NCBI GenBank assembly: GCA_029820295.1 | Contig: JALGVA010000005.1 | Coordinates: 1,025-65,024 of the forward strand | Direction: 5' to 3' | Length of the DNA stretch: 64,000 nucleotides | Origin: Candidatus Zipacnadia bacterium | GTDB taxonomy: Bacteria; Armatimonadota; Zipacnadia; Zipacnadales; UBA5352 | Shown here: positions 12,004 through 58,096 of the stretch, piece by piece | How the letters are laid out: each line of letters starts with the position of its first letter | Numbering within the stretch: position 1 is the first letter of the stretch | Program-made: the position numbers and the translations under genes | The notes under the pieces: model-generated | Seen by the model: the letters and a program-made list of their open reading frames with translations, nothing else | Told to the model about the DNA's origin: nothing | Database searches by the model: none

Positions 12004-12224
12004 CGGCGCAGCTCCGTGTCGGTCCGGGATTCCGATCGGGCGAGTGTTCGCCGCGAGCGTCCGCTGCCCTGCCCCGCGCGCCGGGCAGAGGACTCGGGGC
12101 GGCACGCGCCGAAAACCTGACCGGCCGGGGCCGCGGGCCCTGGCCTCTCTATCCGCGACGGGAACCTTTCACCCGCGCGAAGGCTCAAACACACTGCCGC
12201 GGCGTGCCGGCGCGGAGTGCTGCC

Positions 12225-32957: not shown

Positions 32958-33808
32958 GAGCGCAGGCGGGCCAACCCACGCCGGGCGGCCCTCACCAGCG
33001 CCGGGTGCACCAGGAAGAGCACGAACGCCGCCGCCAGCGCCCCCACCGGCCACCACTCGCGCCGGGCGTGCTCGCCGATCACCCGCCAGCGCTCCGGCGC
33101 GCGCCCCCCGGCCATGCGTACCCGCTCCACGGCGGCCAGCCGGTCACGCAGGCTCTGCGCGTGCTCCAGCGCCGCGCCCGCGCTTGCCAGCGCCCCGGCG
33201 CGATCGCCCCGTCGCCAGGCGACCTCCGCCAGCAGCAGATGGGGCGCGACCCAATCGGGTCGCAGCTCCGCGGCACGCGCCAGGTAGGATTGCGCCGCCT
33301 CCATGTCGCCCGCCTGCAGGAAGCTCTCCCCCGCCAGCGCGTGCGCGCACGCCGAGCCGCTCTCATGCACCAGCTCCAGTAGCGCCACCCGCCGCTCATC
33401 GGCCAGCAGCGCGCGCGTGCGCACATCCACCAGCAGGCAGCGCAGGTCCGCGCGCTCGGGGGCGGCCTGCAACGCCGCGGTCAGCAGCTCCTCGGCCAGC
33501 GCCGCGTTGCCGTCGGCGTGGGCCAGCAGCCCGGCATCACGCAGCTCGTTGGCCAGGTCGAAGCGCTTCCGCTGCAGCGCGGCCGCGGCGGCCCCCTCGT
33601 CACGCAGGCTGCGCACGCGCGCCCGAGTCAGCTCCGCCGCTTCCATGTGCGCGGTCATCGCGAGCGCCTCGAAGCGTATCACCGCCGCCGCCCGCCCCAC
33701 GCCGCTGAGGATCGCCGCAGGCTCAAACTGCACGCTCCATGCGAAGGCGAGCAGCCAGATCAGGCCGCAGCCTGTCAGCCCCAGCGCCGCATGCCATGGC
33801 CTGACCAT
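32927..33808 (-). CDS. Membrane-anchored tetratricopeptide-repeat protein
   Basis: N-terminal TM segment (LTGCGLIWLLAFAW) followed by Ala/Leu/Arg-rich TPR-like helical repeats. Start at internal M22. Confidence 0.55.
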   Translation of the reverse strand: MVRPWHAALGLTGCGLIWLLAFAWSVQFEPAAILSGVGRAAAVIRFEALAMTAHMEAAELTRARVRSLRDEGAAAAALQRKRFDLANELRDAGLLAHADGNAALAEELLTAALQAAPERADLRCLLVDVRTRALLADERRVALLELVHESGSACAHALAGESFLQAGDMEAAQSYLARAAELRPDWVAPHLLLAEVAWRRGDRAGALASAGAALEHAQSLRDRLAAVERVRMAGGRAPERWRVIGEHARREWWPVGALAAAFVLFLVHPALVRAARRGLARLRSQPAAADSTS

Positions 33809-33966
33809 GCGATCACGCCGCCCCGGCGTCCCTGTCGAGATTCCGCACGATGGCACAGTGTGTCGCCGCATTCATGCGCCGGTTGCATCTTCGTTGCCCT
33901 CAAGGCGCATGTTCCCCGGCTGCGGGCCGAAGGATGTACGCGGACGGAGAGAGCTGAGGTGAGTCC

Positions 33967-34320
33967 ATGCAGGACACGCACGAGTGCCCCATGCTCGCGC
34001 GAGCGACACGCCGCTCGCTTCCCCTGGCGGCGGCCATGCTGGCCGCACTTTCGCTGGCCGACCTGGTGACCTCGGCGCTGCTGTTCGCCGGCGGCTACGC
34101 GGTCGAGGCCAACCCGCTGCTGCGCGCGGCCATCCCGGCCATCGGCCTGGGCGGCGTGCTCGTGCTCAAGGCGGGTATCACGATGCTCTTCCTGGCGATC
34201 GTACTCGCCCTGGGCTGCGACACCTCGCGCGTGTTCGCGCGCATGGCCTGGGTGACCTGCGCCGTCTACGCCCTGGTGTGGCTGGCCGGCGCGTTCGGCC
34301 TGCTGGTCGGGCTCAACTGA
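33967..34320 (+). CDS. Small hypothetical membrane protein (3-4 TM)
   Basis: The 117-aa ORF has hydrophobic helices and codon usage typical of the window. No recognisable family. Confidence 0.35.
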   Translation: MQDTHECPMLARATRRSLPLAAAMLAALSLADLVTSALLFAGGYAVEANPLLRAAIPAIGLGGVLVLKAGITMLFLAIVLALGCDTSRVFARMAWVTCAVYALVWLAGAFGLLVGLN

Positions 34321-34342
34321 GCACGGCCGGCGCGGGTCGGTC

Positions 34343-35239
34343 TCAGCGCGCGACAGCCGCGACGATCTCGCCCATCGCGTCCTCCCAACCCTGCGCCATG
34401 ATGTGCAGGCCCTGGCAGCACGGCGCGACCGCGGCCGCGATCTGCCCCGCCAGCTCGAGGGCGACGGCGCGCAGGTCTCCCGGATCAGCCTCGTTCAGAC
34501 GCTGGATGAGCCACGGCGGCACGTTCACCCCCGGGATGCGCGCATTCATGAAGCGCGCCATCCGGGGGGACTTGACCGGGATCAGGCCCGCCAGCACCGG
34601 CACCCCAAGCGCGCCGGCCCGCGCCATGAAGCGCTCAAACCGCGGCGGGTCGAACACCGCCTGAGTCTGGATGAACTCAGCGCCGGCGTCGATCTTCTTG
34701 CGCAGCTTGAGAATCTGAAGCTCCACGTTGTCGGCCTCGGGCGCCACCACCGCGCCCAGGCACAGGTTGGTAGCCGCCGCCAGCGGCGCACCCGTCATGT
34801 CACGGCCCTCGTTGAGTCCGCGCGCCACGTGCAGAAGCTGCACGGAGTCGAGCTCGAAAACCGATCTGGCGTCGGGATGATCGCCCAGCACCATATGGTC
34901 GCCGGTCACGATGAGCACGTTGCGCACGCCGAGCGCATGCGCGGCCAGCAGATCGGCCTGTAGCGCGATGCGGTTGCGGTCACGACAGGTGACCTGCCAG
35001 ACCGGCTCGATGCCCTGTTCCTTCATCAGACGCGCCATCGCCAGCGGGCTCATGCGCAACATCGCGCCCTGACCGTCGGTCACATTGACCGCGTCGGCGA
35101 CCCGCGCGACCATGCGCGCCGCGGCCAGCGCCTTGGATGGGTCCGCGCCCCTGGGTGGCGCCACCTCGCCGGTGACTGCGAAGCCGTGTTGCGCCACCAC
35201 TTCGGTCAGCTTTGCGCCCGTCCGCCACCGATTATTCAT
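34343..35239 (-). CDS. metF: Methylenetetrahydrofolate reductase, MetF (MetV-associated type)
   Basis: MTHFR TIM-barrel motifs (NVTDGQGA, LIVTGDH, FIQTQAVFD). 298 aa. Confidence 0.85.
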   Translation of the reverse strand: MNNRWRTGAKLTEVVAQHGFAVTGEVAPPRGADPSKALAAARMVARVADAVNVTDGQGAMLRMSPLAMARLMKEQGIEPVWQVTCRDRNRIALQADLLAAHALGVRNVLIVTGDHMVLGDHPDARSVFELDSVQLLHVARGLNEGRDMTGAPLAAATNLCLGAVVAPEADNVELQILKLRKKIDAGAEFIQTQAVFDPPRFERFMARAGALGVPVLAGLIPVKSPRMARFMNARIPGVNVPPWLIQRLNEADPGDLRAVALELAGQIAAAVAPCCQGLHIMAQGWEDAMGEIVAAVAR

Positions 35240-35867
35240 CGGAGGTGACCCGGAAGCTCATTGGTTGGCGATAGCGCTCCAGGAGCTTCAGGTTCCCGTC
35301 GGCCTTGAGCCGCCGGTAGATCAGCTCCCAGACGCAAGGACGGTCGGGGAAGACTTCACAGCGGCCCGATTGGGCACCGCCGCAGGGGCCGTTCATGAGC
35401 TGCTTGGGGCAGAAGCTGTGCGGGCACAGGCCGCCGGCGGCCCGCGCGATGCAGTCATCGCACAGATCGCACTCCTCGACGGTCATGGCGCCGCCCCCGG
35501 TGGTCGTGCCGGTAATCGTCTGCACTCCGGACACCAGTGGCAGGTCCGTCACCTGCGCCACCGCCGGTTCGGCCTGGGGACATGCCAGCAGCACGATCAC
35601 CCCGGCGCGTTCGAGGGCGTCGGCGTGGTCGCTCAGCACCCTTCGGGCCACCTGCACATCGCACGTGGCAGCTCCGGGCTCCGGCGCCGCCCAGTCCGCC
35701 ACCTCAACACCCTCTGCGGCCAGTTGCTCGGCCAGCTCGCGGCACTGCTTGGCTCCGCCGAACCGCTCGCGCGTGGCGCATCCGCCGCAGCCGAGCACGA
35801 AGACCGGCGCACCGGCGGGCAGGCGACTGATGATTACCTCCAGAGGGGTCGGCACGACCCGGCGCAT
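35232..35867 (-). CDS. metV: MTHFR C-terminal-like zinc-ribbon/Cys-rich subunit MetV
   Basis: Cys clusters (VLGCGGCAT..., CDLCDDCIARAAGGLCPHSFCPKQLMNGPCGGAQSGRCE) typical of the MetV/MTHFR_C small subunit of acetogen-type MetVF. Overlaps metF by 8 nt. Confidence 0.7.
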   Translation of the reverse strand: MRRVVPTPLEVIISRLPAGAPVFVLGCGGCATRERFGGAKQCRELAEQLAAEGVEVADWAAPEPGAATCDVQVARRVLSDHADALERAGVIVLLACPQAEPAVAQVTDLPLVSGVQTITGTTTGGGAMTVEECDLCDDCIARAAGGLCPHSFCPKQLMNGPCGGAQSGRCEVFPDRPCVWELIYRRLKADGNLKLLERYRQPMSFRVTSDE

Positions 35868-35879
35868 GTCACTGCCCTC

Positions 35880-36677
35880 CTACAGCGTCCCGCTGCGGTA
35901 TGCCTGCAGGTAGCCGGCGCACCACGCATCGCGACCCGCCAGCGCCTCGGCGGCGTGCAGCGTCGCGCGCAGCGGCCGGTCGGTGGGGTCGAGGATGGCG
36001 CTGTCGAGCCCGGCGGCCACCGCCTGCGCGAGGAAGACGCGGTTGAGCAGCGCCCGCTCCGGCAGCCCGAAAGAGACGTTGCTGATCCCGCAGATCAGAT
36101 GACACTCCGGGCGCGCCGAGGCGATGGCCCGCATCGCCTCGCACGCGGCCCGGGCCCCGGCCCCATCGACGCTCAGCGGCGTCACTACCGGGTCCACGAA
36201 GATGTCGACCGCGGGGAGGCCACGATCCGTCAGCTCGCCGATCAGCCGCAGCGAGGCCTGCGCCCGCCCGTGCCCGGTCTCAGGCACCCCCGCATCGGTC
36301 ATCGCCAGCGCGACGATCCGCACTCGCCTCCCGCCCAGCACCGCCAGCGTCTCCTCCAGCCGGGCGCCCTCGAGAGTGACCGAGTTCACCAGCGGCGGCG
36401 CGTCCCCCCGGTACTCGCTCAGCCCCGCGGCCATCGCCGCCGGGCTGGGCGTGTCGATGCACACCGGCGCATCCACCGCCTGCCCCACGGTGCGCACCAG
36501 CCACCCCATCAACTCCACCTCACGCGCACCGACCGCCCCGACGTTGCAGTCGAGGTAATCGGCCCCGGCCTCCACCTGCCGCCTGGCGAGGTCGGCGATG
36601 GCGTCGGCATCGCGCCGCTCCAGCGCCGCTCGCACCGGTGCCCGCGTGCCGTTGATCAGTTCGCCGACGATGATCAT
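35880..36677 (-). CDS. Pterin-binding methyltetrahydrofolate methyltransferase (AcsE/MeTr/MtrH-like)
   Basis: Internal ATG giving MIIVGELINGTRAPV... (compare AcsE MLIIGERING...). DHPS-like TIM barrel, 265 aa. GAGGGAGA RBS. The upstream 125 codons of the track ORF were rejected as low-complexity. Confidence 0.75.
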   Translation of the reverse strand: MIIVGELINGTRAPVRAALERRDADAIADLARRQVEAGADYLDCNVGAVGAREVELMGWLVRTVGQAVDAPVCIDTPSPAAMAAGLSEYRGDAPPLVNSVTLEGARLEETLAVLGGRRVRIVALAMTDAGVPETGHGRAQASLRLIGELTDRGLPAVDIFVDPVVTPLSVDGAGARAACEAMRAIASARPECHLICGISNVSFGLPERALLNRVFLAQAVAAGLDSAILDPTDRPLRATLHAAEALAGRDAWCAGYLQAYRSGTL

Positions 36678-37603
36678 GTATCTCCCTCTTCTCCCACCCC
36701 CAGCCCGCGCACCAGCGCGGTCAACGCGCGGCACAGCGGCGCCGGCAGCCCGCGCTGCTCGGCACGGCGCGCGATCTCGCCGTTGATGAAATCGATCTCC
36801 GTGCGCCGCCCCGCGCTCACGTCCTGCAGCATCGACGAGCGGTTCTGCGCGGTCTGTCGGCAGATGGCCTCGACCGGCCCGGCCATGTCCTCGCGCACGA
36901 ACACCCCGCAGTTGCGCGCGACGTCGGCGGCCTCCTCGGCCACCGCACCCAGCAGCTCCAGCAGCTCCGGTACCTCCACCAGCATCCCGTTGCGCAGGCC
37001 GGTCAGCGCGGTCAGCGGATTGATCGCGGCGTTCACGATCGCCTTCGCCCACAGCGCCTCGTCGATGGCAGGCGTGCGTTCGCAGTCGATGCCGCCTCGC
37101 GCGAGCAGCGCCACGGCATCTCGGGCCCGATGCTCGGCGCCGCTGGGCGAGCCGATCTGCGCGACCCCGCGCCCGGCCTCACGCACGTGCCCCTCGCCCA
37201 GCAGCGTGGCGCCGGTCGTGGTCGTCCCCGCCAGCACACACGCCTCCGGCACCACCTGCGCGATGCGCTCGTAGTTGCCCAGCCCGTTCTGCAGCGTCAG
37301 CACGCCGGACGACTCGTCGAGCGCCGGCAGCGCGTGGCGCGCGGCTACGTCTGTGTCGTAGGCCTTGACGACGATGATCGCCAGCGTCGCGGGATGAAAG
37401 TCGGCCGCGTCGGCGCTGCACGCCACCGGTACCGTGGTCTGCGCGCCGTCGCGCTCAACGATGATGCCCTGCTCGGCGATGCGCGCCGCCCGATCCGCGC
37501 GGTGGTCCAGCAGCCCCACGCGCACACCGCCCTCGGCCAGCAGCGCCGCGTGCAGGCAGCCCATCGCGCCCGGCCCGACGATCAACACCTCCACCCCGCT
37601 CAC
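36674..37603 (-). CDS. panE: 2-dehydropantoate 2-reductase (ketopantoate reductase, PanE/ApbA family)
   Basis: N-terminal GxGxxG (VLIVGPGAMG). ApbA_C domain. 309 aa. ATGA overlap with the downstream gene. Confidence 0.8.
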   Translation of the reverse strand: MSGVEVLIVGPGAMGCLHAALLAEGGVRVGLLDHRADRAARIAEQGIIVERDGAQTTVPVACSADAADFHPATLAIIVVKAYDTDVAARHALPALDESSGVLTLQNGLGNYERIAQVVPEACVLAGTTTTGATLLGEGHVREAGRGVAQIGSPSGAEHRARDAVALLARGGIDCERTPAIDEALWAKAIVNAAINPLTALTGLRNGMLVEVPELLELLGAVAEEAADVARNCGVFVREDMAGPVEAICRQTAQNRSSMLQDVSAGRRTEIDFINGEIARRAEQRGLPAPLCRALTALVRGLGVGEEGDT

Positions 37604-38952
37604 GTCTCGTCCTCCTCGGGGCCGTGCGGCTTGAGGCCGCGCAGGCCCTCGCCGCGCTGCTGGTGCCAGCGCTCCAGCTCGGCTACCTGCGCCAGCGTAC
37701 TGCCCGCGTCGATCTCCGCCTTCTCGCGCCGCTCGCGCTCCATCACGGACATGGCGCGGTTCGCGATGCCCACGGCCTGCTCGCGCGGGACCACGATGAC
37801 GCCGTCGTCATCGGCGATGATCCAGTCGCCGGTGCGGATCGTGGTCTCGCCGATCTTGAGCGGCACCCCGATCATGCCCATGCCCTTGGGCTCGCCCGCG
37901 TTCGGTGTGCGCAGCGCGCAGAACGCCGGGAAGTCAAGCTCGCCGATCTCGCGCGTGTCGCGCATCGCACCGTTGATCACCACGCCGCCGAGTCCGCGCG
38001 AGATGCAGCTCTTGGTGGCCTCCTCCCCCCACACCGCCGGTCCCTCGCCGCGGACGTCGATGACCAGCACGGCGCCCTCGTCGGCCTGGTCGATGGCCTC
38101 AACCGACTTCGCCCAGTCGCCCGGGTAGGTCCACACGGTCAGCGCCGGCCCGCACACCTTGAGGCCCGGCTTGACCGGGAAGATGCCCGGAACAAGTCCG
38201 CGCCGGTGCTGCGCGTCGGAGACATTCGCCGCCGAGCAGCGCATGAAGATCTCGCGCAACTGCTCGGCGCCGCCGCGCTTGAACAGCTCGGTCTCCACCG
38301 CCTCACCCGACGCCATGGCCTCCGCGATGGCGCGCGCGGCCGCGGTGGCGTCGGGGGCCTTGATGATCGCCCCGCCGACGATGACTATGTCCGCGCCGGC
38401 CTTCACCGCCTCGGGCGCGGTCTCGGAGTTGATGCCCCCCGCGACGGCGATCCGGCAGTCCACGGCATCGCGCACCGACCGCAGCGCGTCCATCGGGTCG
38501 GCGCCGACCATCTGCTCGTCGATGGCGGTGTGAATCCCGACGATCGCCGCGCCCAGCTCCTCGGCGCGCCGCGCGCGCTCCACCGGCGTCCGGCAGCCGA
38601 TCAGGTCCACCTGCACCAGCGCGTCGTAGTTGCGCCCGGCCTCCACGCACTCGGCGATGGTCTCGTCCGAGGCCGCCGCCAGCACGGTCACCACCTGCGC
38701 GCCGGCCTTGGCGGCCATCTCGACCTCGGCGCGGCCCGCGTCCATGATCTTCAGGTCCGCGACCACGGTCAGCGCCGGGAACTCCTCGCGCAGGGCGCGC
38801 ACCGCCGCCATGCCCTCGCTCTTGATCAGAGGCGTGCCCGCCTCGACCCAGGTCGCGCCCCCCGCCACCGCCTCGCGCGCCGCGCGCAGCGCCTGGCTGA
38901 GGTTGATGAAGTCCAGCGCCACCTGCAGAGTCGCCTCGCCCGCCATCGTCAT
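37600..38952 (-). CDS. Fusion: OMPDC-suprafamily 3-hexulose-6-phosphate synthase / 3-keto-L-gulonate-6-P decarboxylase-like domain, plus RraA-like (class II aldolase / DlpA) domain
   Basis: N-terminal LQVALDFINL...DLKIMDAG...GADIVIVGGAI is the HPS/KGPDC fold. C-terminal VIDVRGEGPAVWGEEAT...GGVVINGAMRDTREI is the RraA family signature. Start at M50 (ATGACGATGGCG) with a GAGAGGGG RBS. Confidence 0.75.
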   Translation of the reverse strand: MTMAGEATLQVALDFINLSQALRAAREAVAGGATWVEAGTPLIKSEGMAAVRALREEFPALTVVADLKIMDAGRAEVEMAAKAGAQVVTVLAAASDETIAECVEAGRNYDALVQVDLIGCRTPVERARRAEELGAAIVGIHTAIDEQMVGADPMDALRSVRDAVDCRIAVAGGINSETAPEAVKAGADIVIVGGAIIKAPDATAAARAIAEAMASGEAVETELFKRGGAEQLREIFMRCSAANVSDAQHRRGLVPGIFPVKPGLKVCGPALTVWTYPGDWAKSVEAIDQADEGAVLVIDVRGEGPAVWGEEATKSCISRGLGGVVINGAMRDTREIGELDFPAFCALRTPNAGEPKGMGMIGVPLKIGETTIRTGDWIIADDDGVIVVPREQAVGIANRAMSVMERERREKAEIDAGSTLAQVAELERWHQQRGEGLRGLKPHGPEEDET

Positions 38953-38960
38953 CGCCCCTC

Positions 38961-40100
38961 TCAGAGGCCGGTCACGTCCGCCATGTACACGTTGCATGGC
39001 CCGCCCGCGTCCGAGGTGAACAGCGCCCAGCGGTCGTCGGGGCTGAAGATCGGGTGCGGATGCGACTGCTGCTTCGTCCACGAGGTGTCGTGGCGGCACA
39101 GCCGCGTGACCTCGCCGCGCCCGTTAACGTGCCGGATGATCGACATGTACGCCCGCCCGTCCGGGTCGTCGGGCGCGAGGTAGCCGCAGTCGCCGACCAC
39201 CAGCGTGTTGTCCGAGTTCGACTGGATGTGCCCCGGACGCGGGCCGGGCAGCAGGAACTGCCGCAGCCACGAGCCGTCCGGCCGCACGAAGCAGTTGTAG
39301 TGCAGCGCCTCGCCCTCAGACTCGCCGATCACCTGGAAGCCAACCTCGCCGGTGCGCGTGAAGTACTCGTGGCAGCACGACTCGCCCAGGTGCTGGCGGA
39401 ACAGCGGCTGCGCCTGCCGCCCGCGCCGCACCGACGCATCCACGGTCCACATGCGCTGCCTCACATGCGAGCCGCCCTCATGGCAGAACAGGATCAGGTC
39501 CGGCCGGGTCGGGTGGATGCATACGTGCGAGATCCAGTTGCGCTCGCCCCAGACCGCCTCCGCGCCGCCCGTCGAGGTGTCGATGCGCATGATCACGCAC
39601 GCCGGGTGCTGGTAGTAGCGCTCGGCCATGGTCGAGTAGATCACGCCGGTCTCGGTGCTCAGCTCCGAGCGCTCCATGTAGGCGAAGGCCACGTGGCTGC
39701 CGTCGGCCGTGCAGGTGGGCAGCGCCGGGCGGAAGCCGTCGGGGACGCGGTAGAGGTCCTCGGTCTGCAGCGTCGCGAGATCGGTGACCTTGAGGGTGGC
39801 GTCCTGGAAGTGGAAGAGCCGCCCACCCGGGTCGAGGCACGCCTGCGAGAAGCTGGACACCAGGTTCTCGGTGACCTGCACCATGCGCCGGTCGGCGATC
39901 TCGAGCAGGAAGTAGGCCCTGCCGCCCGCACGGTCGGAGCTGATGACGACGCGCTCGGCGCCGTCGCCCACGAACGAGGTAGAGGTGAAGTACAGGTGCA
40001 CATTCTCGGAGCCGTCGCCGGTCAGCCGCCGCACCAGCGCGCCGGTCTCGGGGTCGGCCCACTCCTCGATCTGCGCCTCGAACACATCGCCCACGGCCAT
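38961..40100 (-). CDS. Oligogalacturonate lyase-like (PL22) seven-bladed beta-propeller protein
   Basis: C-terminal HPHPIFSPDDRWALFTSDAGGPCNVYMADV is typical of the OGL/TolB-like propeller C-terminus. 379 aa. Family assignment is moderately confident. Confidence 0.55.
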   Translation of the reverse strand: MAVGDVFEAQIEEWADPETGALVRRLTGDGSENVHLYFTSTSFVGDGAERVVISSDRAGGRAYFLLEIADRRMVQVTENLVSSFSQACLDPGGRLFHFQDATLKVTDLATLQTEDLYRVPDGFRPALPTCTADGSHVAFAYMERSELSTETGVIYSTMAERYYQHPACVIMRIDTSTGGAEAVWGERNWISHVCIHPTRPDLILFCHEGGSHVRQRMWTVDASVRRGRQAQPLFRQHLGESCCHEYFTRTGEVGFQVIGESEGEALHYNCFVRPDGSWLRQFLLPGPRPGHIQSNSDNTLVVGDCGYLAPDDPDGRAYMSIIRHVNGRGEVTRLCRHDTSWTKQQSHPHPIFSPDDRWALFTSDAGGPCNVYMADVTGL

Positions 40101-40106
40101 CGCGCG

Positions 40107-40727
40107 TCAGCTCCTGTCGCTTCGGGCGTCGATGACTCCGTCCTCGGTAACGATCACCGATACGCGCACATCCCACGCTTCGCGCGGCACCTCATCCACG
40201 ATCTGGCTGGCGAAGGCGACCGCGACCGCCGCGCCGCTGTCCACCAGGTCGCCGCGCACGTTCAGGATGTAGTCGTAGTACCCGCCGCCGTAGCCCAGCC
40301 GCCCGCCGTGCCGGTCGAAGGCCAGCCCGGGGACGAGGATGAAGTCGATGTCGCTCTCCGTGCATTCCGGACAGTTCCCCGCGATCGGCTCGGGGATGCC
40401 GCTCCATCCGGGGACAAGTTGTGTCTCCGGGTCGACAACCTCGTGCAGTGCCAGCGCCTCCTCCGGCCCGCGCACGCGCGGCAGCACCAGCCGCGCACGC
40501 GAGCGCACGGTGTGTGCGATCAGCCGGTCGGTGCGCACCTCGCTGCCGATGCTGGCGAACAGCAACCGCACCCGCGCCCGCCGGTAGCTGCTCAGCAGCA
40601 TGACCCGGCGGGTGATCTCAGCGCTGCGCTCCTCGATCTCCGCCGGCGCCAGCGCGTCGCGCGCACGGAGCGCTTCCTCGCGCAGCGCCTGCTTGCGCTC
40701 GGCGGCGTTCAAGGCTCCTCCCGCCAC
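40107..40727 (-). CDS. 5-formyltetrahydrofolate cyclo-ligase (MTHFS)
   Basis: LVPGLAFDRHGGRLGYGGGYYD motif characteristic of 5-FTHF cycloligase. Confidence 0.8.
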   Translation of the reverse strand: MAGGALNAAERKQALREEALRARDALAPAEIEERSAEITRRVMLLSSYRRARVRLLFASIGSEVRTDRLIAHTVRSRARLVLPRVRGPEEALALHEVVDPETQLVPGWSGIPEPIAGNCPECTESDIDFILVPGLAFDRHGGRLGYGGGYYDYILNVRGDLVDSGAAVAVAFASQIVDEVPREAWDVRVSVIVTEDGVIDARSDRS

Positions 40728-41926
40728 GCGCCCATGATGGCGTCGGTCATGCGCGCCACCTGCACCATCGCCGCGACGTCGTGCACGCGGATGATGTCCG
40801 CCCCGCCCGCGATGGCCAGTGCGCAGGTGGCCGCTGTGCCCATCAGCCGCTCGTCCGCAGGCACGCCGCCCAGCACTGTGCCGATGGTGGACTTGCGCGA
40901 GGTACCGACCAGCACGCCCGGCCCGAGGCCGCGCAGCTCACGCAGGCGGCGCAGGATCTCGAGGTTGTTCGCCACCGTCTTACCGAAGCCGAAGCCGGGG
41001 TCGATCACCAGGCGGTCGCGCTCCACGCCGCCCGCCATCGCGGCTGCGACGCGCTCGGCCAGGAAGCCGTAGATGTCGGTCATCAGGTCATCGTAGTGCG
41101 GCGCCTGCTGCATGGTGCGCGGCTCGCCCTGCATGTGCATGATGCACGCCGCCGCGCCGGTCTCCGCGACCGCCTCGATCATGCCGTCGGCGCGCAGGCC
41201 GAAGACGTCGTTGATCATCCCCGCGCCCGCCGCCACCGCCAGCCGCGCCACCTCCGGCTTGCTCGTGTCGATCGAGATCACGGCCCCAAGCTCGGCCAGC
41301 GCCTCCACGACGGGCAGCGTACGCTCAAGCTCCTCCTCGAGCGCCACCGCCTCGCTGCCGGGGCGCGTGGACTCGCCGCCCACGTCGAGGATGTCGGCTC
41401 CGGCCGCGATGAAGCTCGCCGCCTGCTCCACGGCGGCATCGACGTCCGCCCCGAGGCCGTCACCGGAGAACGAATCCGGCGTCACGTTGATGATGCCCAT
41501 CACGAGCGTGCGCTCGCCCAGCGGCAGCTCGCGGTCCACGCAGCGCAGCGGCGGGCGCGCATCTGTGTCGAAGGACGTGACGGTCGCGACCACCTCGCTC
41601 GCGATCGTGCCGAGCCCGAACGGCCCGTCCGCGAGGCGTTCGGCCAGCCGCGCGAAAGTCTGCGGATCGCCCAGCAACACCACCGGCCGCGGCGTGTCGT
41701 CGAAGGCTGCGACGTCGCGGTGCACGGCGCACTCGCCGCCCAGCGCGAGCATCTCCTGGCGCAGCAGCGCCGCCGCCCGGCCGTGGACGGCCTCCACCCG
41801 CACGGCACGCACACGCGCGCGGTCGGCCAGCGCCTCGACGGCCGCAGGCGGCACGCCGACGGCGCGCATCTCCGTCAGCAGGGCATCGCGACCATCGAGA
41901 TCGAGAACTCGGGCCTGGTGGGACAT
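40709..41926 (-). CDS. folP: Dihydropteroate synthase with a ~125-aa N-terminal extension domain of unknown function
   Basis: DHPS pterin-binding core starts at LVMGIINVTPDSFSGDG (aa ~131), with DVGGESTRPG, IDTSKPEVA and GAGMINDV motifs. The N-terminal 125 aa have no recognisable DHPS homology. Confidence 0.8.
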   Translation of the reverse strand: MSHQARVLDLDGRDALLTEMRAVGVPPAAVEALADRARVRAVRVEAVHGRAAALLRQEMLALGGECAVHRDVAAFDDTPRPVVLLGDPQTFARLAERLADGPFGLGTIASEVVATVTSFDTDARPPLRCVDRELPLGERTLVMGIINVTPDSFSGDGLGADVDAAVEQAASFIAAGADILDVGGESTRPGSEAVALEEELERTLPVVEALAELGAVISIDTSKPEVARLAVAAGAGMINDVFGLRADGMIEAVAETGAAACIMHMQGEPRTMQQAPHYDDLMTDIYGFLAERVAAAMAGGVERDRLVIDPGFGFGKTVANNLEILRRLRELRGLGPGVLVGTSRKSTIGTVLGGVPADERLMGTAATCALAIAGGADIIRVHDVAAMVQVARMTDAIMGAWREEP

Positions 41927-41973
41927 ATGCGCATCGTCCTGTCCACGCGGCGGCGGGGTCGCTCTCCGGCGGC

Positions 41974-42002
41974 ATTATATCGCCTCGCCAGCGCGCACGC
42001 AA
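41974..42002 (-). promoter_or_regulatory. Sigma70-like promoter (minus strand) TTGCGT-17-TATAAT, ~45 nt upstream of folP
   Basis: The reverse complement reads ggttgcgtgcgcgctggcgaggcgaTATAATgcc. Perfect -10, weak -35. Confidence 0.4.
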
Positions 42003-42076
42003 CCGCACGGAAGGTGGCCGTCGGTGCGCCGACGAACGCCCCGCGGACGCCATCCGGGTGCGGGAGACATGCGGCC

Positions 42077-42973
42077 ATGAAGGCAGATGATCTGCGGGGG
42101 TTCTGGGGTGCGGTGCGTGCCGAGCTGGACGCCGTGCCCGTCGGCGCCGAGACCGAGCCGGTCGAGCCGCCGCTCGACGCGCTCGTGCAGGTGCAGCGCG
42201 TCACCATGTCCGGGCTCGGCGGGGTGCGCTTCCGGGCCTATCTGTGCACGCCGCAGCTCGGCGCGGGCGCGGGCCCGCGGCCGGCCGTGGTGTGCACGCC
42301 CGGCTACGGCGGCACCACGCCGCACACCTCGTGGTGGGGGCTGTGCTACGACCGAGGCTTCGCGCTGCTGGTGGTCTACCCGCGCGGGCAGGGCGAGAGC
42401 GCCGAACTGTGGCGGGTGCCCGCGGGCCTCAGCAAGCTGACCATGGGGCTGGACGATCCGGCCGGGCAGTACTACCGAGCCGCCTACGCCGACTGCATGC
42501 GCGGCATCGACTTTCTGTGCGAGCACCCGGGCATCGACCGCGAGCGCATCGGCGCGCTGGGGCTCAGCCAGGGGGGCGGGCTGACGCTCGCGACCGCGGC
42601 CCTCGACGGCCGGGTGCGCGCGGCGGTCGCGCACGAGCCCTTCCTGTGCAACTACCCGGTCGCAGTCGAGACCGCGACCACCGGGCCCTACCTGGAGCTG
42701 ACCGCGTGGCTGCGCGAGCACCCCGAGCGGCGCGAGCAGGCGCTGGCGACGCTCGCGTGGTTCGACCCGGTGAACCTCGCGCAGCTCATCGCCTGCCCCA
42801 CCTTCATCTCCATCGGGCTCGCCGACACCACCTGCCCGCCGGAGACCATCCGGCCGGTGTACGACGCGATCACGGCCATGAAGGGGCTAATCGAGATCCC
42901 GGGCGCGGGGCACGGCTGGCAGTACGACTACCGCCCCTTCAACGACCTGTGGCTGCGCCGCTTCCTGGGGTGA
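42077..42973 (+). CDS. Acetyl xylan esterase / cephalosporin-C deacetylase family (CE7, AXE1)
   Basis: Internal ATG within the 730-aa track ORF, with a GGGAGACA RBS. Catalytic GLSQGG nucleophile elbow and C-terminal HG (AGHGW). 298 aa. Confidence 0.75.
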   Translation: MKADDLRGFWGAVRAELDAVPVGAETEPVEPPLDALVQVQRVTMSGLGGVRFRAYLCTPQLGAGAGPRPAVVCTPGYGGTTPHTSWWGLCYDRGFALLVVYPRGQGESAELWRVPAGLSKLTMGLDDPAGQYYRAAYADCMRGIDFLCEHPGIDRERIGALGLSQGGGLTLATAALDGRVRAAVAHEPFLCNYPVAVETATTGPYLELTAWLREHPERREQALATLAWFDPVNLAQLIACPTFISIGLADTTCPPETIRPVYDAITAMKGLIEIPGAGHGWQYDYRPFNDLWLRRFLG

Positions 42974-42989: not shown

Positions 42990-44267
42990 TCAGCGGAGGC
43001 CGTCGGCGCTGCGCAGACAGTGAAGCCGGCCGTCGTTGGCGCCGATGTAGATGCGCCCGTCGCTGAAAGCCGGCGACGAGTATACCTTCGTGGACAGGGC
43101 CTCGCGCGCAATGATGGCGCCATCGGCGGCATTGAGCAGGTAGAGGTTGCCGTCGTGGCAGCCGAAGCACAGGGTGTCACCCAGCAGCGCCGGCGAGGAG
43201 TCGACCACCCCGCCCACCTGGCGCTCCCAGGCCAGCTCCCCGTCGGACAGCCGCAGGGCGCGCGCCACCGTCTTCGACAGGTAGCCCTCGACCGTCACGA
43301 AGTAGCAGTACCCGTCCGCGACCAGCGGCGAGCCCGGCACCGAGAACGCCTCGTTGGCCGCCCAGCGCTGCTCCCCGGTGGCGAGATCGAGGCCGATCAG
43401 GTAGTCGAGCTTGGGCGGGCGCAGCGCACTCGGGCCCATGAGCGCAAAGACCACGAGATCGCCGGCAACCACCGGCCCCGCCACGACCTTCGGCGTGCCC
43501 GCGGTGTCCGCCGCAACATCGGCGCCGGTCCCGCCCGGCTCGACGGCCTCGGCGCGCCAGCTCATGCGCGACGCCGACTCCGGGCGCAGCGCGAGTTCCC
43601 AGCGCACCGAGCCGTCGGCCAGCGACAGCGCGCGCATGCGGCCCACGTCGTCGCCGTAGAGCACGCTGTCGCCGGCGATGGCCGGCGCGCCCTGGATCCC
43701 CGCGCCCGGCTCGGTGCGCCACAGCACCGAGCCGTCGGCCACCGAGAGCGCGCACAGGCGGCCGTCCATCGAGCCGAAGACCACCGTGTTGCCGGCGACC
43801 GCCGGCGATGACAGCACCGGCCCGCGCGTGCGGTAGCACCAAGCAAGGGCGCCGTCCGCGGCGCGCAGGGCGTAGAGGAAGCGATCGACCGAGCCGAAGA
43901 GCACCAGCCCGTCCGCGACCGCCGGCGATGACACGATGGCGCCGCCCGTCTGGAAGCGCCACAGCTCAGAGCCGTCCGCGGCCGACAGCGCGTGCATGAC
44001 TCCCAGCGAGTCGCCGACGTAGACCACCTGCCCAACGACCGCCGGCGAGCCGTCCACGCTGCCGCCCGGAGCCAGCTCGACCGCCCACACGCCCGCCAGC
44101 CCCGTGACCTGCGCGTCGGCGACGGTGCCGGTGCGCGCGGGATCGAGGCGGAACATCGGCCAGTCGGCGGCGGCCGTCCCGACGACCGCCAGCAGCAGTG
44201 TGGCGGCGAGCAGCATGCGCGCAGCCGGGCGCGGCCGGTCTGCGGATGGTGTTCCCGATGGTGCCAT
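42990..44267 (-). CDS. PQQ-like beta-propeller repeat protein (BamB/YfgL-like) with signal peptide
   Basis: Repeated xDGxxLWxxxxGGxxxSSPAVAxxxVxxGS blades (at least 7). Signal peptide after M9. GGAGGA RBS. Confidence 0.75.
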   Translation of the reverse strand: MAPSGTPSADRPRPAARMLLAATLLLAVVGTAAADWPMFRLDPARTGTVADAQVTGLAGVWAVELAPGGSVDGSPAVVGQVVYVGDSLGVMHALSAADGSELWRFQTGGAIVSSPAVADGLVLFGSVDRFLYALRAADGALAWCYRTRGPVLSSPAVAGNTVVFGSMDGRLCALSVADGSVLWRTEPGAGIQGAPAIAGDSVLYGDDVGRMRALSLADGSVRWELALRPESASRMSWRAEAVEPGGTGADVAADTAGTPKVVAGPVVAGDLVVFALMGPSALRPPKLDYLIGLDLATGEQRWAANEAFSVPGSPLVADGYCYFVTVEGYLSKTVARALRLSDGELAWERQVGGVVDSSPALLGDTLCFGCHDGNLYLLNAADGAIIAREALSTKVYSSPAFSDGRIYIGANDGRLHCLRSADGLR

Positions 44268-44356
44268 GGTGGGGCTCCTCCAACGGTACACGCAGCACCG
44301 CCTGCGAACAGGCGGCGCTGCGCAAAGGTCGATCGAGTGGCTCAGACGCGTCGTGC

Positions 44357-44848: not shown

Positions 44849-47800
44849 TCAGCGTGCGACCTGGGCGGAGCGCAGCGCCTGCACCCGCTGGCCGTTGTCG
44901 GCGACGGCCTCGATGCGGATCAGGTAGGTGCCCGCGGGCACTACGGTGCCCTCGGCGCTGCGCAGGTCCCACAGTTGCTCGCCCTGCCCGGCCGGCACCG
45001 CGCGCGACTGCACCAGCCTGCGCACCGACCGGCCTGCGATGTTGAGCACCTCGATGCTCAGGTTGCACGTCGAACTCACGTCGTAGGTCACCATCAGACC
45101 GGCGCCGCCGACGCTCGCCGCGGCACTGCGGATCGCCAGGCTCTCCGCGCCGCGCGGCGCGACCTCGAGCGCGAAGTGACGCAGCGCACCATCCGTGCCC
45201 GTGGTGAACACGTAGGCCGGCAGCGTGCGCGCATACATGCGCTCGCCGGTGTCGAGGTCGGTCAGGTAGACCGCCAGGTCGGCAGGCACCGCGCTCAGGT
45301 CGGGCAGCAGCACCTGCACCTCGGCGTCGGCCAGGTCGGTCTCGACCGAGAAGGTCCAGACCATCGCGCCCGCGCCGGCCGGGCGGATGTCATGGGCGAG
45401 GCGCGCACCGGAGTCATCGGTGAAGTAGACGTCCACCGTGCCGGGCACGCGCGGCGGGTTCTCCACGCGGTAGCCCTGGCCCTCGGCACCGCTGCCCACG
45501 CCCGCGACGGTGCTGATGTCGGCGCGGCCCGCGGCGTGGGCGACGATCGGCACCAGCCAACCGCCCTCGGCGACGTCGGCCGCCGCCGCGGGCCCGACCG
45601 CCAGTGACGCGGCGCTCACGCCGGTGGGCGCGGCCACGTTGAGCGTGCCCGCGGCGCCGGTGGCCTTGAACCACGCGCCCTCCCAGGCCTCGATGTAGTT
45701 GCGCGCCGAGTTGATGGCCGGACTGCGGGAGATCATCCGATAGCTGCCGATGGTGTTGTCCCAGATGAACGCGTAGGGGCGGATCTCGGTGCTGCCCGCC
45801 GCCGTGATGTTGGCCAGAGGCAGCGCGCTCTCATACATGTTCCCGAGCATGTTCCAGCCCGTGGAGACGCCCACGCTGAAGGTGCCGGCGGCGCCGACCG
45901 GGTCGCCGGGGATGTTCACGGTAGTCTGGGTCGGGAAGTCCACGAAGAACGCCGCGCCCGGCCGCACCACCAGCTCGAGGTGGTCCGGGTCGTCGGCCGC
46001 CCGCACGTAGCCCGGCGGCGTCGCCGAAGCATTCCAGCGGGCCACCTGCAGCGTCTGGAAGATATCGACCGCGCGGTCGCGCCCGGTGGGCGGATCCGCG
46101 GGCACGGCCACCATCTGCAGGCCGCGCGCGAACTGGTGCACGAACTCACTGTAGGCGGTGAAGTTGTTGCCGGTGGATGACGGCGGCACCGTCACCTGCA
46201 GCGTCGCGGGGTCGAACGCCAGCCCCGCCTTGGTTGCGGTCAGCACCACCGTCGAGGCGGGAACCCCGCCGATGGTGAATTCACCGGCCTCGCTGGTCAC
46301 CGCAGTGCGCGTCCCGTCGCTCACCGTCACACCGGCGATGCGGTTGCCCAGGCTATCGCTGACGCGACCGGAGATGGTGTAGGTCATGGTCGTTGCGGTG
46401 AAGTCCACGCCGGTGGCATCCGTCCCGGCCACGTTGACGGTGCGCGAAGCGGGCGTGTAGGTGAAGTCCTGGTAGCCGTCGCTGTTGGCGTCACGGCTGC
46501 ACGCGACCGTGTAGATGCCGTTGGGCACGTCCGCGATGGTGAAGTCCCCGTTGGCGTCGGTCAGTGCGCTGCGCGTGCCGTCGCTGACCTGCACACCGGC
46601 CACCCCGGCGCCGTCCTGGGTGACACGCCCGGTGATGTCGTGCGTGCGCTCCATGCCCACGAAGTCGATATCACGCGCCGACGGGCCCACGGTCACCTGC
46701 TGCGCCACCGGGGTGAAGTCGTACTCCGGGAACGAGGGCGTGACCGTGTAGGTGCCGGCCAGCAGCCCCTGCACGCGGTAGGCGCCGTTGCCGTCGGTGC
46801 CCACCGTCTGCCCGTCCACGGTCACATCCACGCCCGGCAGCGGCTCGCCGGCGACGTCGGTCACGAAGCCCCTGATCTCGTAAGTGGGCTCGTCCTCGGT
46901 CGTGAAGCTCCAGTCGGCCGTGCCGGCGTTGCCCGCCTCGTCCGCGGCCTCGACGTGCACATCGTAGTCGGTGGCGTAGTCCAGGTCGGCGGGCGGCTGG
47001 TAGGTCACGATGACCTCGGGCTCACCCACCTGCGCGGGGGCCGGACCGGTGGTCAGGTCGCCGGTCACGTCCGTGCCGTTGACGCTCATCGCGATGCTGC
47101 CCTCGTCAACGCCCGAGCCGCCGTCGCGCACCCGCACGGAGATGGCGCTGCTCACGAGTACATCGCTGGAGCCATCCGGCGGGCTGAACTGGTCGAACAT
47201 CGGCGCGACCACATCGGTCGCCGAACTCTCCTGCCACGTCTCGGTGGGCATGGCGTTGCCCGCGATGTCAGACACGTCCACGGAGAAGTCCACCGTGGCG
47301 TTGAAGCCCCAGCCGCCTGGCGCCGCATAGCTCACCACCACGTCCAGCGGGTCGGTGGCGTCGATGGTCGCGCCGCCGGTCACATCGGTGCCGTCCACCT
47401 GGAAGACGAGCGTGGTCACGTCCACGCCGGAGATGTCGTCCTCGATGTGGAAGGTCACCGTGCCCGCGTTGGCGTCGAAGGCCTTGTTGGTCACCTGCGG
47501 CGCCTGCGTGTCGGACGTGGTGTCGAAGTAGTAGACCTCGTGCAGCTCGTTGCTGCTGTTGTCGTCCACGCGCACGGCGACCATCACGTGCTCGTTATAG
47601 CTGAACGGCCCCGCCGGATCGAAGTCCACATGGATGCCGCCGGCGATCGGCGTGACCACCGCGCTCGGGGTGACCGTGATCCCGTTGACGGCCATGCTCA
47701 GCGTCGACGCATCCACGCCGGTGCCGTCGTCGAGGATGTCGAAGGAGATGTTGCTGTCACGCGTCACCTCGGTGGCGTCCGGCGCCGGATCCTGGTTCGC

Positions 47801-57955: not shown

Positions 57956-58096
57956 CGTACTAGGCCACCTCTCGCTGCTGATTTGCCCCGCAACCGCCGA
58001 CACACAGTCATGCGTCCGGCGTTCACGCGCGGCGCGCGATCGACGAGACGAAGGGACCCTCGTGCCGGCCCCTTACGGGCCAGCCTGTCTGCGGCC

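Follow-up and report, generated by a model that had tools for sequence, protein, structure and literature searches.

The archaeal Fae-Hps fusion proteins are known to supply pentoses and to trap the freed formaldehyde on a pterin C1 carrier that feeds the methyl branch. Kono 2017 (PMC5241800) treats the RuMP enzymes as operating in the reverse direction, with Fae joining formaldehyde to tetrahydromethanopterin; the same paper measured an HPS activity of 0.21 U/mg for HPS-MenG of Methanospirillum hungatei (Mhun0647). The only paper found on a fusion of the HPS-RraA type assigns no known function to its RraA-like domain. For related Armatimonadota the Wood-Ljungdahl pathway is reported to be nearly complete, and the PPP and reverse RuMP to be incomplete (PMC10290634). 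In the anammox organism Kuenenia, 13C-formate labels fructose-6-P (M+1) via HPS/PHI, with formaldehyde of unidentified origin (10.1101/835298). This is direct evidence of exchange between C1 units and hexose-P in a lineage to which the fusion-bearing MAGs of Brocadiia are related.

Organisation of the gene cluster

In the current analysis we have considered a stretch of 64,000 nucleotides (the window) from an uncultured anaerobic Armatimonadota MAG (Zipacnadia-like). Eight genes of its minus strand, at 34343-41926, encode in order folP, MTHFS, an oligogalacturonate-lyase (OGL) homolog, an HPS-RraA fusion, panE, MeTr, metV and metF. The original prediction had described them as one unit tied to the THF-bound C1 pool, and this is borne out: all the reading frames were found where it had placed them, families could be assigned by profile models, and the tightly packed genes of conserved order make up a true one-carbon cluster of operon-like form.

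The tight same-strand packing suggests co-transcription of the eight genes. From MTHFS to metF the coordinates reproduce the predicted spacings of 6, 8, -4, -4, 12 and -8 nt. The overlap of folP and MTHFS, given before as 19 nt, is likely one of 4 nt with the most likely MTHFS start, the TTG at 40712 that follows GGAGGAG (the JGI call, 201 aa). With the JGI start of HPS-RraA, two codons later, the gap from OGL becomes 14 nt. Overlapping stop and start codons join HPS-RraA to panE (GTGA) and panE to MeTr (ATGA). An AXE1 esterase gene, divergent from the operon with its start at 42077, forms the upstream boundary, and a convergent DUF5658 gene ending at 34320 the downstream one. As for the promoter placed upstream of folP, a perfect TATAAT (41979-41974, minus strand), read directly in the 150-nt divergent intergenic region, does lie 47 nt before the folP ATG. 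It is a candidate -10 only, as no acceptable -35 hexamer accompanies it, for which reason the consensus scan of 33800-42400 called no promoter; it called no terminator either.

Folate and methyl-transfer genes

The folP product (40709-41926) matches dihydropteroate synthase over residues 142-396 (TIGR01496, 303 bits, cut-off 163). Its N-terminal extension of about 140 residues, which has no Pfam match, is kept in the related loci L002, L010-L012, L015 and L016; it is not FolB-like (hhalign probability 0.2%). MTHFS (40107-40727) is a 5-formyl-THF cyclo-ligase (TIGR02727, 151 bits, cut-off 85). The metV gene (35232-35867) encodes the small partner subunit of MetF (PF12225, 96 bits, residues 123-205) and metF (34343-35239) a methylene-THF reductase (PF02219, 138 bits). 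The NCBIfam model that fits the latter best is PRK08645, in its MTHFR half (252 bits), and the curated NAD(P)H-MetF model TIGR00676 is not reached (86 bits, cut-off 294).

MeTr (35880-36677) is a methyl-THF:corrinoid methyltransferase type of pterin-binding TIM barrel. It had been predicted to be AcsE-like; it passes NF005719 (280 bits, cut-off 259) but not the AcsE-specific NF040758 (122 bits, cut-off 370). PDB matches are 4O0Q (190 bits), 2YCI (169) and 2E7F (140), and the closest solved relative is the O-demethylase MT-II of D. hafniense (4O0Q), ahead of Moorella AcsE at 140 bits. With the MeTr proteins linked to AcsD in other phyla it shares only 30-36% identity, and the window MeTr may serve a corrinoid system other than the AcsD-linked one. 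No match to the B12-binding (corrinoid) family occurs among the window genes scanned, in line with the original prediction. The absence of MT-I stated there has to be qualified by a weak candidate, a divergent minus-strand gene of the URO-D/MtaA-CmuA family at 10933-12105 (PF01208, 57 bits; TIGR01463, 43 bits, far below cut-off). Profiles built from relatives detected no PHI, YjbQ, AcsD, CooC, RACo, FolD, FchA or PanC in the window.

The HPS-RraA fusion, PanE and the OGL homolog

The fusion gene (37600-38952), the most informative of the eight and the anchor of the conserved module, scores 542 bits with NF005442, just under the cut-off of 593. Its HPS domain (38314-38934), a 3-hexulose-6-phosphate synthase of the OMPDC suprafamily, passes the HxlA model TIGR03128 (212 bits, cut-off 200) and matches 9LJ9, 3AJX and 3F4W; among 85 sequences, E37, D66-x-K68-x-x-D71 and H141 show little or no variation. 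The second domain (37645-38232; PF03737, 147 bits) is RraA-like, of the long HMG/CHA-aldolase/oxaloacetate-decarboxylase type, with 3K4I and 3NOJ as best PDB matches. It carries the complete G309-X20-R-D-X2-E motif of metal-dependent pyruvate aldolases; R331-D332 align with R123-D124 of 3NOJ, and G309, R331, D332 and D299 are invariant in the same 85 sequences. The domain is predicted to be a catalytically intact metal-dependent 2-oxoacid aldolase or decarboxylase.

PanE (36674-37603), whose start overlaps the HPS-RraA stop, is a ketopantoate-reductase-like member of the PanE/ApbA family of 2-oxoacid reductases (TIGR00745, 273 bits, cut-off 141) that scores below every equivalog cut-off; the closest PDB entries are the KPRs 3HWR, 5HWS and 5AYV.

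The OGL homolog (38961-40100), of family PL22 (PF14583, 135 bits; 3C5M and 3PE7), is apparently cytoplasmic. It retains R217, H242, H287, Q350, H353 and H355 (3PE7 numbering), which we take to be the catalytic and metal residues of PL22. Homologs with 59-62% identity at two loci of other lineages lie in carbohydrate contexts lacking folate genes. The OGL is probably a lineage-specific carbohydrate passenger, a predicted working uronate lyase carried along in this lineage.

Conservation and distribution

Gene order comparison supported the prediction: the order is kept in relatives, and the fusion is associated with THF or Wood-Ljungdahl genes in differing orders in at least six phyla. The eight-gene order is common to L002, L010, L012 and L015 (a Zipacnadia MAG), and to L011 except that no metV hit was found. 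Where measured, the HPS-RraA proteins of these relatives are 80-84% identical to the window protein. Since close relatives share the flanking genes too, their synteny is inheritance and not independent support. The cluster is also kept where the flanks differ, in L007 and L092. Among more distant loci of Armatimonadota type, HPS-RraA-PanE-MeTr stands behind folP-MTHFS-folB-(fhs)-fchA-folD-metF in L007, L009 and L016; L008 retains the trio, but folP, MTHFS and folB are absent within the flank. A 551-residue protein with a corrinoid-protein-like B12-binding domain precedes the trio in L007, L013, L014 and L017, and MtaA/CmuA-family URO-D proteins flank it in L008, L016 and L090.

At least 595 GTDB species genomes encode the fusion, with 55-84% identity over the 80 loci kept. 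All 80 carriers from the genome collection are MAGs, several of them from lineages known as anaerobes. Neighbourhoods were counted over 84 loci. YjbQ adjoins the fusion in 36, a bona fide PHI in 28 (TIGR03127, 173 bits, cut-off 160), and 34 loci, which represent six phyla or more, have genes of folate metabolism or the Wood-Ljungdahl pathway (MeTr, AcsD, RACo, Fhs, FchA, FolD, MetVF) within about 8 kb. The occurrence of HPS beside THF enzymes is not due to chance. Fusions in Fhs/FchA/FolD, MetVF or acs (AcsD-MeTr-RACo-CooC) clusters occur in Planctomycetota, Omnitrophota, Lentisphaerota, Kiritimatiellia, Firestonebacteria and Armatimonadota. The order RACo-CooC-AcsD-MeTr-YjbQ-HPS/RraA is found at 12 loci of Omnitrophota and Planctomycetia, and at five loci of Pirellulales, Lentisphaerota and Kiritimatiellia HPS/RraA and PHI lie between Fhs and FchA-FolD, some of these also with AcsD-MeTr or MetVF. 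This recurrence points to an undescribed link between sugar phosphates and one-carbon metabolism.

PanE genes are also associated with the fusion. At least 24 of the 120 top PanE hits share a contig with an HPS-RraA hit, a Kiritimatiellia cluster (L072) also holds PanE, and 13 or more Actinomycetota loci have PanC beside the fusion, in one of two orientations. The original prediction had tied PanE to the C1 pool through PanB, which would draw on methylene-THF; by a validated E. coli PanB query, none of about 90 loci has a PanB within 10 kb.

Proposed function

The presence of PHI, YjbQ and folate/Wood-Ljungdahl genes beside HPS-RraA across loci supports a link of the THF one-carbon pool with RuMP chemistry. 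In the reading we prefer, to which we give an even chance, the operon connects sugar phosphates with the C1 units carried by THF, since HPS would free formaldehyde that equilibrates with methylene-THF, and the flux is a reverse RuMP. Fructose-6-P would be converted to D-arabino-3-hexulose-6-P and this by the HPS domain, in a reversible reaction, to ribulose-5-P and formaldehyde, for pentose supply. The toxic formaldehyde would be captured on THF and reduced via MetVF, which would interconvert methylene-THF and methyl-THF, and MeTr, which would exchange methyl groups between methyl-THF and a corrinoid protein encoded elsewhere, into the corrinoid/acetyl-CoA branch; in relatives FolD, FchA and Fhs may oxidise it to formate instead. 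FolP, making dihydropteroate, and MTHFS, recycling 5-formyl-THF, would serve cofactor upkeep. PanE probably acts as reductase on a 2-oxoacid that the RraA-like domain produces or consumes. The preferred reading gives no defined role to this domain, which is always fused to HPS, or to PanE with its translational coupling. Against it stand the PanE-MeTr pairs with no adjoining HPS-RraA in L090 and L091, and the roughly 50 of 84 loci (Desulfobacterales, Brocadiia, Actinomycetota) with no THF gene nearby. As to the predicted tie of HPS to RuMP, PHI adjoins the fusion in 28 loci but is found neither in the window nor in any Armatimonadota-type locus, so that the RuMP leg is incomplete locally.

The original prediction had the flux run from methyl groups to formaldehyde and a RuMP sink. 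A corrinoid system would demethylate substrates, MeTr would act as MT-II to form methyl-THF, MetVF would oxidise this to methylene-THF, and HPS would fix the formaldehyde on ribulose-5-P as RuMP-type assimilation or detoxification. The relationship of MeTr to the D. hafniense MT-II and the B12-binding or URO-D proteins beside the trio in some relatives speak indirectly for demethylase-derived methyl groups. The weak MtaA-like gene in the window and the entry of C1 units into hexose-P in Kuenenia also favour this direction. However, a corrinoid protein, RACo and PHI were not found in the window, its URO-D protein is only 23% identical to that of L008, thermodynamics disfavour the freeing of formaldehyde by methylene-THF, and the acs clusters holding the Omnitrophota and Planctomycetia fusions run reductively in acetogens. 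The THF-RuMP link of that prediction is supported; as to direction, the reverse fits the acs-cluster contexts, the reported Wood-Ljungdahl capacity of related Armatimonadota and the Fae-Hps precedent at least as well, and we consider methyl assimilation rather unlikely.

An improbable proposal is that pantoate is made independently of PanB, the RraA-like aldolase joining formaldehyde, from hexulose-6-P via HPS or from methylene-THF, to 2-oxoisovalerate and PanE reducing the ketopantoate; in a variant, pyruvate would give 4-hydroxy-2-oxobutanoate for PanE. The THF genes would then reflect a shared C1 donor. It would account for the intact aldolase motif, the coupling of panE and its co-occurrence with the fusion (L072 included), the PanC neighbours and the lack of a PanB nearby. 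But PanB may sit elsewhere in these genomes, PanE or PanC adjacency is confined to two or three lineages and possibly inherited, the PanE-MeTr pairing is left unexplained, and such an activity has no biochemical precedent; the 55-84% identity over the 80 loci kept and the PHI pairing speak more for a central enzyme of high flux than for one of vitamin synthesis. A chance or historical juxtaposition of housekeeping genes (folate, MetF, PanE, HPS, CAZyme) with no shared pathway is very improbable. The flanks kept in close relatives do make much of the synteny phylogenetic inertia, OGL seems unrelated to C1 chemistry, and in L002 an opposite-strand nucleoside hydrolase splits the cluster between OGL and HPS-RraA. 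Chance is opposed by the differing orders in at least six phyla, the overlapping codons from HPS-RraA to MeTr, and the clusters of L007 and L092.

Comparison with known systems

The same-strand MetV-MetF and MeTr-family genes recall the methyl-branch clusters of acetogens (metV-metF, acsE/MeTr, fhs, fchA, folD), and in relatives of the operon the set is extended by fhs, fchA and folD, or by acsD together with cooC and RACo. The window differs in having no acsABCD or CFeSP and a MeTr that fails the AcsE model; to our knowledge the classical clusters do not include HPS-RraA, PanE, FolP, MTHFS or OGL. Corrinoid O-demethylase systems (MT-I, corrinoid protein, MT-II, activating enzyme) provide the closest MeTr relative, 4O0Q, but no B12-binding protein, clear MT-I or activator is seen among the operon and window genes scanned.

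As in PanB-PanE pantoate synthesis, a KPR-family reductase stands beside an aldolase-type domain and the methylene-THF pool, and PanC adjoins the fusion in Actinomycetota; PanB homologs are absent from the window and the loci examined, and the putative aldolase is of a different fold. With bacterial RuMP operons (hxlA-hxlB or rmpA-rmpB) the locus shares an HPS domain passing the HxlA equivalog-domain model and, in the 28 related loci, an adjoining PHI passing the HxlB model. Here HPS is fused to an RraA-like domain, PHI is missing from the window, and the neighbours are THF enzymes instead of formaldehyde-responsive regulators.

HPS-MenG (Mhun0647), by the domain description of the paper (PMC5241800), has the same HPS plus RraA/MenG-like architecture in an archaeal protein. 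The archaeal Fae-Hps proteins (Methanosarcina, Methanospirillum Mhun1628) likewise have HPS fused to a second domain, Fae there and an RraA/HMG-CHA-aldolase-like domain here. With THF in place of H4MPT as the carrier, a coupling drawn from gene neighbourhood only, the arrangement would be a THF-world counterpart of archaeal Fae-Hps.

Organisation of the operon

The window, which has a G+C content of about 71%, carries eight consecutive minus-strand genes at 34343-41926, namely folP, MTHFS, OGL, the HPS-RraA fusion, panE, MeTr, metV and metF. This arrangement, put forward in the original prediction, is borne out by the listing of open reading frames and by third-position GC, and the identities of the genes agree with Pfam and NCBIfam scans. 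The tight spacing described earlier also agrees with the coordinates except at the first junction. MTHFS almost certainly starts at the TTG at 40712, which is preceded by a GGAGGAG Shine-Dalgarno sequence and agrees with a public gene call of 201 residues; the overlap of folP and MTHFS is therefore 4 nt and not 19 nt. The TATAAT reported upstream of folP is a perfect hexamer at 41979-41974. It is without a matching -35 hexamer and is not called as a promoter, and the consensus scan around the operon calls neither promoters nor terminators. The operon is bounded by a divergent gene encoding an AXE1 esterase, starting at 42077, and on the other side by a convergent DUF5658 gene.

An identical sequence occurs on a JGI metagenome contig. 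The closest homologs are labelled Armatimonadota. The same eight genes are found in four related loci of other genomes (L002, L010, L012 and L015), and a fifth (L011) has matches to all but metV. One of them, L015, belongs to a Candidatus Zipacnadia MAG and has a gene order identical to that of the window. As the close relatives also share the flanking genes, the shared gene order reflects inheritance and has been set aside as independent evidence.

The HPS-RraA fusion protein

The fusion protein, currently annotated as 'HPS/ribonuclease regulator', scores 542 bits against NF005442, slightly below the cut-off of 593. The HPS half passes the HxlA equivalog-domain model TIGR03128 (212 bits, cut-off 200), and the KGPDC models score lower, at 100 and 76 bits, each under its cut-off. 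The D-x-K-x-x-D residues D66, K68 and D71 and the histidine H141 are invariant in this half, and E37 is retained in 84 of the 85 aligned rows.

The RraA-like half matches PF03737 with 147 bits (cut-off 24.5), is of the long HMG/CHA-aldolase type and has 3K4I and 3NOJ as its top PDB matches. The catalytic motif of this class is G-X20-R-D-X2-E/D, and its form G-X20-R-D-X2-E is a diagnostic mark of activity as a metal-dependent pyruvate aldolase/oxaloacetate decarboxylase. It is present in the RraA-like half as GEEATKSCISRGLGGVVINGAMRDTRE, with R331 and D332 aligned to R123 and D124 of 3NOJ; none of G309, R331 and D332 varies among the 85 sequences. The equivalogs for CHA aldolases of the LigK/ProA type are missed (NF006731, 105 bits against 179; TIGR02798, 97 against 304). 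Both halves are catalytically intact, as judged by these residues, and strongly constrained. The sole paper found on the function of HPS-RraA proteins, Kono et al. 2017 (PMC5241800), describes the architecture and refers to the function of the RraA-like domain as unknown.

Distribution and genomic neighbourhoods of the fusion

The fusion is widespread in uncultured bacterial lineages, known anaerobes among them. A search with the fusion protein gave more than 7900 matches at E <= 1e-10, which may include single-domain proteins; the 120 matches listed are each at least 66% identical. At least 595 fusion loci were recognised on scanning one genome per GTDB species, and the best 80 of these were taken; they come from Armatimonadota, WS1, Actinomycetota, Brocadiia, Planctomycetota, Omnitrophota, Desulfobacterales, Lentisphaerota, Kiritimatiellia and Firestonebacteria. 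Every open reading frame within 7 kb of the fusion was clustered over 84 loci and the recurrent families were annotated.

Six kinds of neighbourhood have been identified. The Armatimonadota type (group A, 15-17 loci) has HPS/RraA-PanE-MeTr, in several cases behind folP-MTHFS-(folB or OGL)-(fhs-fchA-folD)-metF. Omnitrophota and Planctomycetia (group B, 12 loci) have the order RACo-CooC-AcsD-MeTr-YjbQ-HPS/RraA, and Pirellulales, Lentisphaerota and Kiritimatiellia (group C, 5 loci) have (AcsD-MeTr)-Fhs-HPS/RraA+PHI-FchA-FolD-(MetV-MetF), where PHI is 6-phospho-3-hexuloisomerase. The fusion is found as PHI-HPS/RraA in Desulfobacterales (group D, about 20 loci), with PHI plus YjbQ in Brocadiia (group E, 6 loci) and as YjbQ-HPS/RraA with PanC adjacent in Actinomycetota (group F, about 15 loci); THF genes are found near the fusion in none of these last three groups. 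PHI lies beside the fusion in at least 28 of the 84 loci and passes the HxlB equivalog TIGR03127 (173 bits, cut-off 160), and YjbQ does so in at least 36; all counts over the 84 loci are lower bounds because many contigs are short.

THF or Wood-Ljungdahl genes adjoin the fusion in at least 34 of the 84 loci, from at least six phyla and in differing gene orders, and it is this outward tracing of the fusion that decides whether HPS chemistry is functionally tied to the THF C1 pool; such a link is well supported. The original prediction had methyl groups, for example from demethylation, passing through methyl-THF to methylene-THF and formaldehyde into a RuMP-like sink. Its pathway link is upheld by the co-location across phyla; the evidence does not establish the direction, the roles of OGL and PanE or the demethylation source.

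Several features of the neighbourhoods may be recorded in their own right. PHI and YjbQ/UPF0047 are largely complementary beside HPS-RraA (L023-L089; for example L052 9448-9957 and L080 5598-6212): Desulfobacterales and most PVC loci have PHI without YjbQ, Omnitrophota, Planctomycetia and Actinomycetota have YjbQ without PHI, and Brocadiia have the two together. We know of no established function for YjbQ. A Kiritimatiellia locus (L072 5567-15403) encodes PanE-Fhs-HPS/RraA-PHI-FchA-FolD-PurH-like followed by two oxidoreductase genes that appear NfnAB-like, with a class II fructose-bisphosphate aldolase about 1 kb beyond them; the cluster reads like a shunt from hexose phosphate to pentose phosphate and formate. 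The Actinomycetota loci (L028-L089, such as L056 and L085) have, downstream of HPS-RraA and besides PanC, a GlpX fructose-bisphosphatase-like gene together with 2-phosphoglycerate kinase-like and cyclic 2,3-diphosphoglycerate synthetase-like genes, all recognised by eye only. The last two enzymes are unusual for bacteria.

Other enzymes encoded in the operon

FolP passes the DHPS equivalog TIGR01496 (303 bits, cut-off 163) over residues 142-396, covering the whole pterin-binding barrel, and MTHFS passes the bacterial equivalog TIGR02727 (151 bits, cut-off 85). FolP has an N-terminal extension of about 140 residues (41507-41926, minus strand) that is conserved in six related loci (L002, L010-L012, L015 and L016), is missing from the FolP proteins of 288-292 residues in three others (L007, L009 and L092), and has no Pfam match even at E = 10. 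The possibility that the extension is a degenerate FolB standing in for the missing folB was rejected, as hhalign gives a probability of 0.2% and FolB occurs together with the extension in L016. MetF (PF02219, 138 bits) and the neighbouring MetV (PF12225, 96 bits), whose genes overlap by 8 nt, are assigned to the MetVF type; metF misses the NAD(P)H-type model TIGR00676 (86 bits, cut-off 294).

The OGL homolog matches PF14583 over its full length (135 bits, cut-off 30) and the structures 3C5M (137 bits) and 3PE7 (132 bits) over residues 1-376. The residues that we take to be Mn-binding (H287, H353, H355, Q350) and catalytic (H242, R217) in YeOGL are all identical in the protein of the window when aligned to 3PE7. 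OGL keeps to the folate cluster within Armatimonadota despite rearrangement (L018, L092), and its homologs in two loci of other lineages have carbohydrate surroundings. A role as a disguised C1 enzyme was rejected on the grounds of these carbohydrate surroundings and of the PL22 catalytic residues, which are kept in full. In the related locus L002, whose OGL is 73% identical, an inosine-uridine nucleoside hydrolase (11137-12063, minus strand) is encoded on the opposite strand between OGL and HPS-RraA, so the cluster there comprises two transcription units.

PanE matches PF02558 (123 bits), PF08546 (127 bits) and TIGR00745 (273 bits, cut-off 141), and its nearest PDB entries are ketopantoate reductases (KPRs) throughout; it stays under every cut-off of the 2-dehydropantoate reductase equivalogs (for example 181 against 500 and 166 against 252). 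Of the top 120 matches of this PanE subfamily, at least 24 lie on a contig that also carries HPS-RraA, and PanE recurs in the Kiritimatiellia cluster. PanE and MeTr are neighbours, in some cases separated by a small gene of the ASRT family, even in loci that have HPS-RraA at a distance of 10 kb or lack it (L090 10001-11764; L091 10001-12189; L008 11441-15356), which suggests that the two form a functional pair, one that none of the present models accounts for.

MeTr passes the domain model NF005719 (280 bits, cut-off 259) and matches 4O0Q, 2YCI and 2E7F over its full length. It misses the model NF040758 for AcsE of CODH/ACS (122 bits, cut-off 370) and shares only 30-36% identity with the MeTr linked to AcsD in groups B and C; among solved structures its closest relative is 4O0Q, an O-demethylase MT-II, MT-I and MT-II being the methyltransferases of corrinoid demethylase systems. 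The prediction that the window encodes no corrinoid protein or MT-I holds for B12-binding families, which are absent from its scanned genes, with the caveat of a weakly matching URO-D/MtaA-like gene 24 kb from the operon. This divergent member of the URO-D/MtaA-CmuA family (10933-12105, minus strand; PF01208, 57 bits; TIGR01463, 43 bits, far under the cut-off) may possibly be a corrinoid-dependent methyltransferase; its identity to the MtaA-like gene that adjoins the trio of HPS-RraA, PanE and MeTr in L008 is only 23%, so the two are at most putative orthologs. In four other loci (L007 7240-9997, L013, L014 and L017) the trio is directly preceded by an octopine-dehydrogenase-like gene and a protein of 551 residues whose one family match, to a corrinoid-protein-like B12-binding domain, is confined to the N-terminal 125. 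On its downstream side the trio is followed in these loci by an Amidohydro_2/UxaC-like gene.

Direction of the proposed flux

A reverse RuMP direction is favoured. The occurrence of the fusion inside acs clusters, the Wood-Ljungdahl pathway reported in related Armatimonadota, the favourable condensation of formaldehyde with THF and the parallel with archaeal Fae-Hps all argue for it. Hexose phosphate would be converted to pentose phosphate and formaldehyde, which would be trapped as methylene-THF and reduced by MetVF and MeTr toward the corrinoid/acetyl-CoA branch; where Fhs, FchA and FolD adjoin, the C1 unit would instead be oxidised to formate. Carlton et al. 2023 (PMC10290634) describe the classes Zipacnadia and Hebobacteria as having a complete or near-complete Wood-Ljungdahl pathway that serves as an electron sink, and their pentose-phosphate and reverse-RuMP pathways as incomplete. 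PHI is absent from the 64-kb window and from the group A loci, and profiles built from relatives find no YjbQ, AcsD, CooC, RACo, FolD, FchA or PanC in the window. The forward direction, with C1 units entering RuMP as originally predicted, is the less likely of the two; it agrees with 13C-formate data from Kuenenia (10.1101/835298) and with the presence, in some relatives, of B12-binding and MtaA-like genes next to the trio.

We consider it unlikely that the fusion is a formaldehyde-transfer enzyme with two active sites, in which HPS would release or consume formaldehyde on the sugar phosphate and the RraA-like domain would transfer it to an acceptor. This could be THF, making the domain a non-homologous bacterial counterpart of Fae, or a 2-oxoacid, as in the conversion of 2-oxoisovalerate to ketopantoate, which PanE would then reduce, giving a route to pantoate without PanB. 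A PanB-independent route to pantoate formed by the RraA-like aldolase, PanE and PanC is statistically suggestive but speculative. PanB is found neither in the window nor within 10 kb in any locus (an E. coli PanB query, validated against 1M3U with 583 bits, was used), but it could be encoded elsewhere in these genomes.

Other features of the window

Two tandem giant proteins of 2203 and 2128 residues (44849-51460 and 51617-58003, both minus strand) contain numerous CarboxypepD_reg, Big_5 and Ig-like domains. They occur with a PQQ-type β-propeller gene (42990-44291), and the arrangement is conserved in L002. A natural-product cluster was rejected, since these two proteins of more than 2100 residues are CarboxypepD_reg/Ig-like surface proteins and not NRPS or PKS. 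An unusual fusion at 8826-10610 (plus strand) joins an N-terminal nitroreductase domain to a hybrid histidine kinase with receiver, HisKA and HATPase domains.

Significance and comparison with known systems

The main value of the operon lies in revealing an HPS-RraA module that is widespread and uncharacterised and has ties to C1 metabolism. Should the link hold, it would account for the way in which many Wood-Ljungdahl or sugar-fermenting anaerobes obtain pentoses without formaldehyde waste or poisoning, assign a testable function to a fused domain of very wide occurrence, provide a candidate for the 'unidentified formaldehyde source' of the anammox 13C-labelling work, and point to natural enzymes joining formaldehyde, THF and 2-oxoacids that are relevant to synthetic C1 assimilation. 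Either reading with formaldehyde transfer would, if true, amount to a new enzyme activity and to a shunt from hexose phosphate to pentose phosphate and C1-THF that feeds Wood-Ljungdahl or formate branches. If the link fails, the cluster would be a folate/methyl-branch operon of the ordinary kind that carries two passenger genes. The arrangement of HPS-RraA with THF genes parallels that of archaeal Fae-Hps, and the operon itself is akin to the known THF/Wood-Ljungdahl methyl-branch clusters, of which it is a variant.
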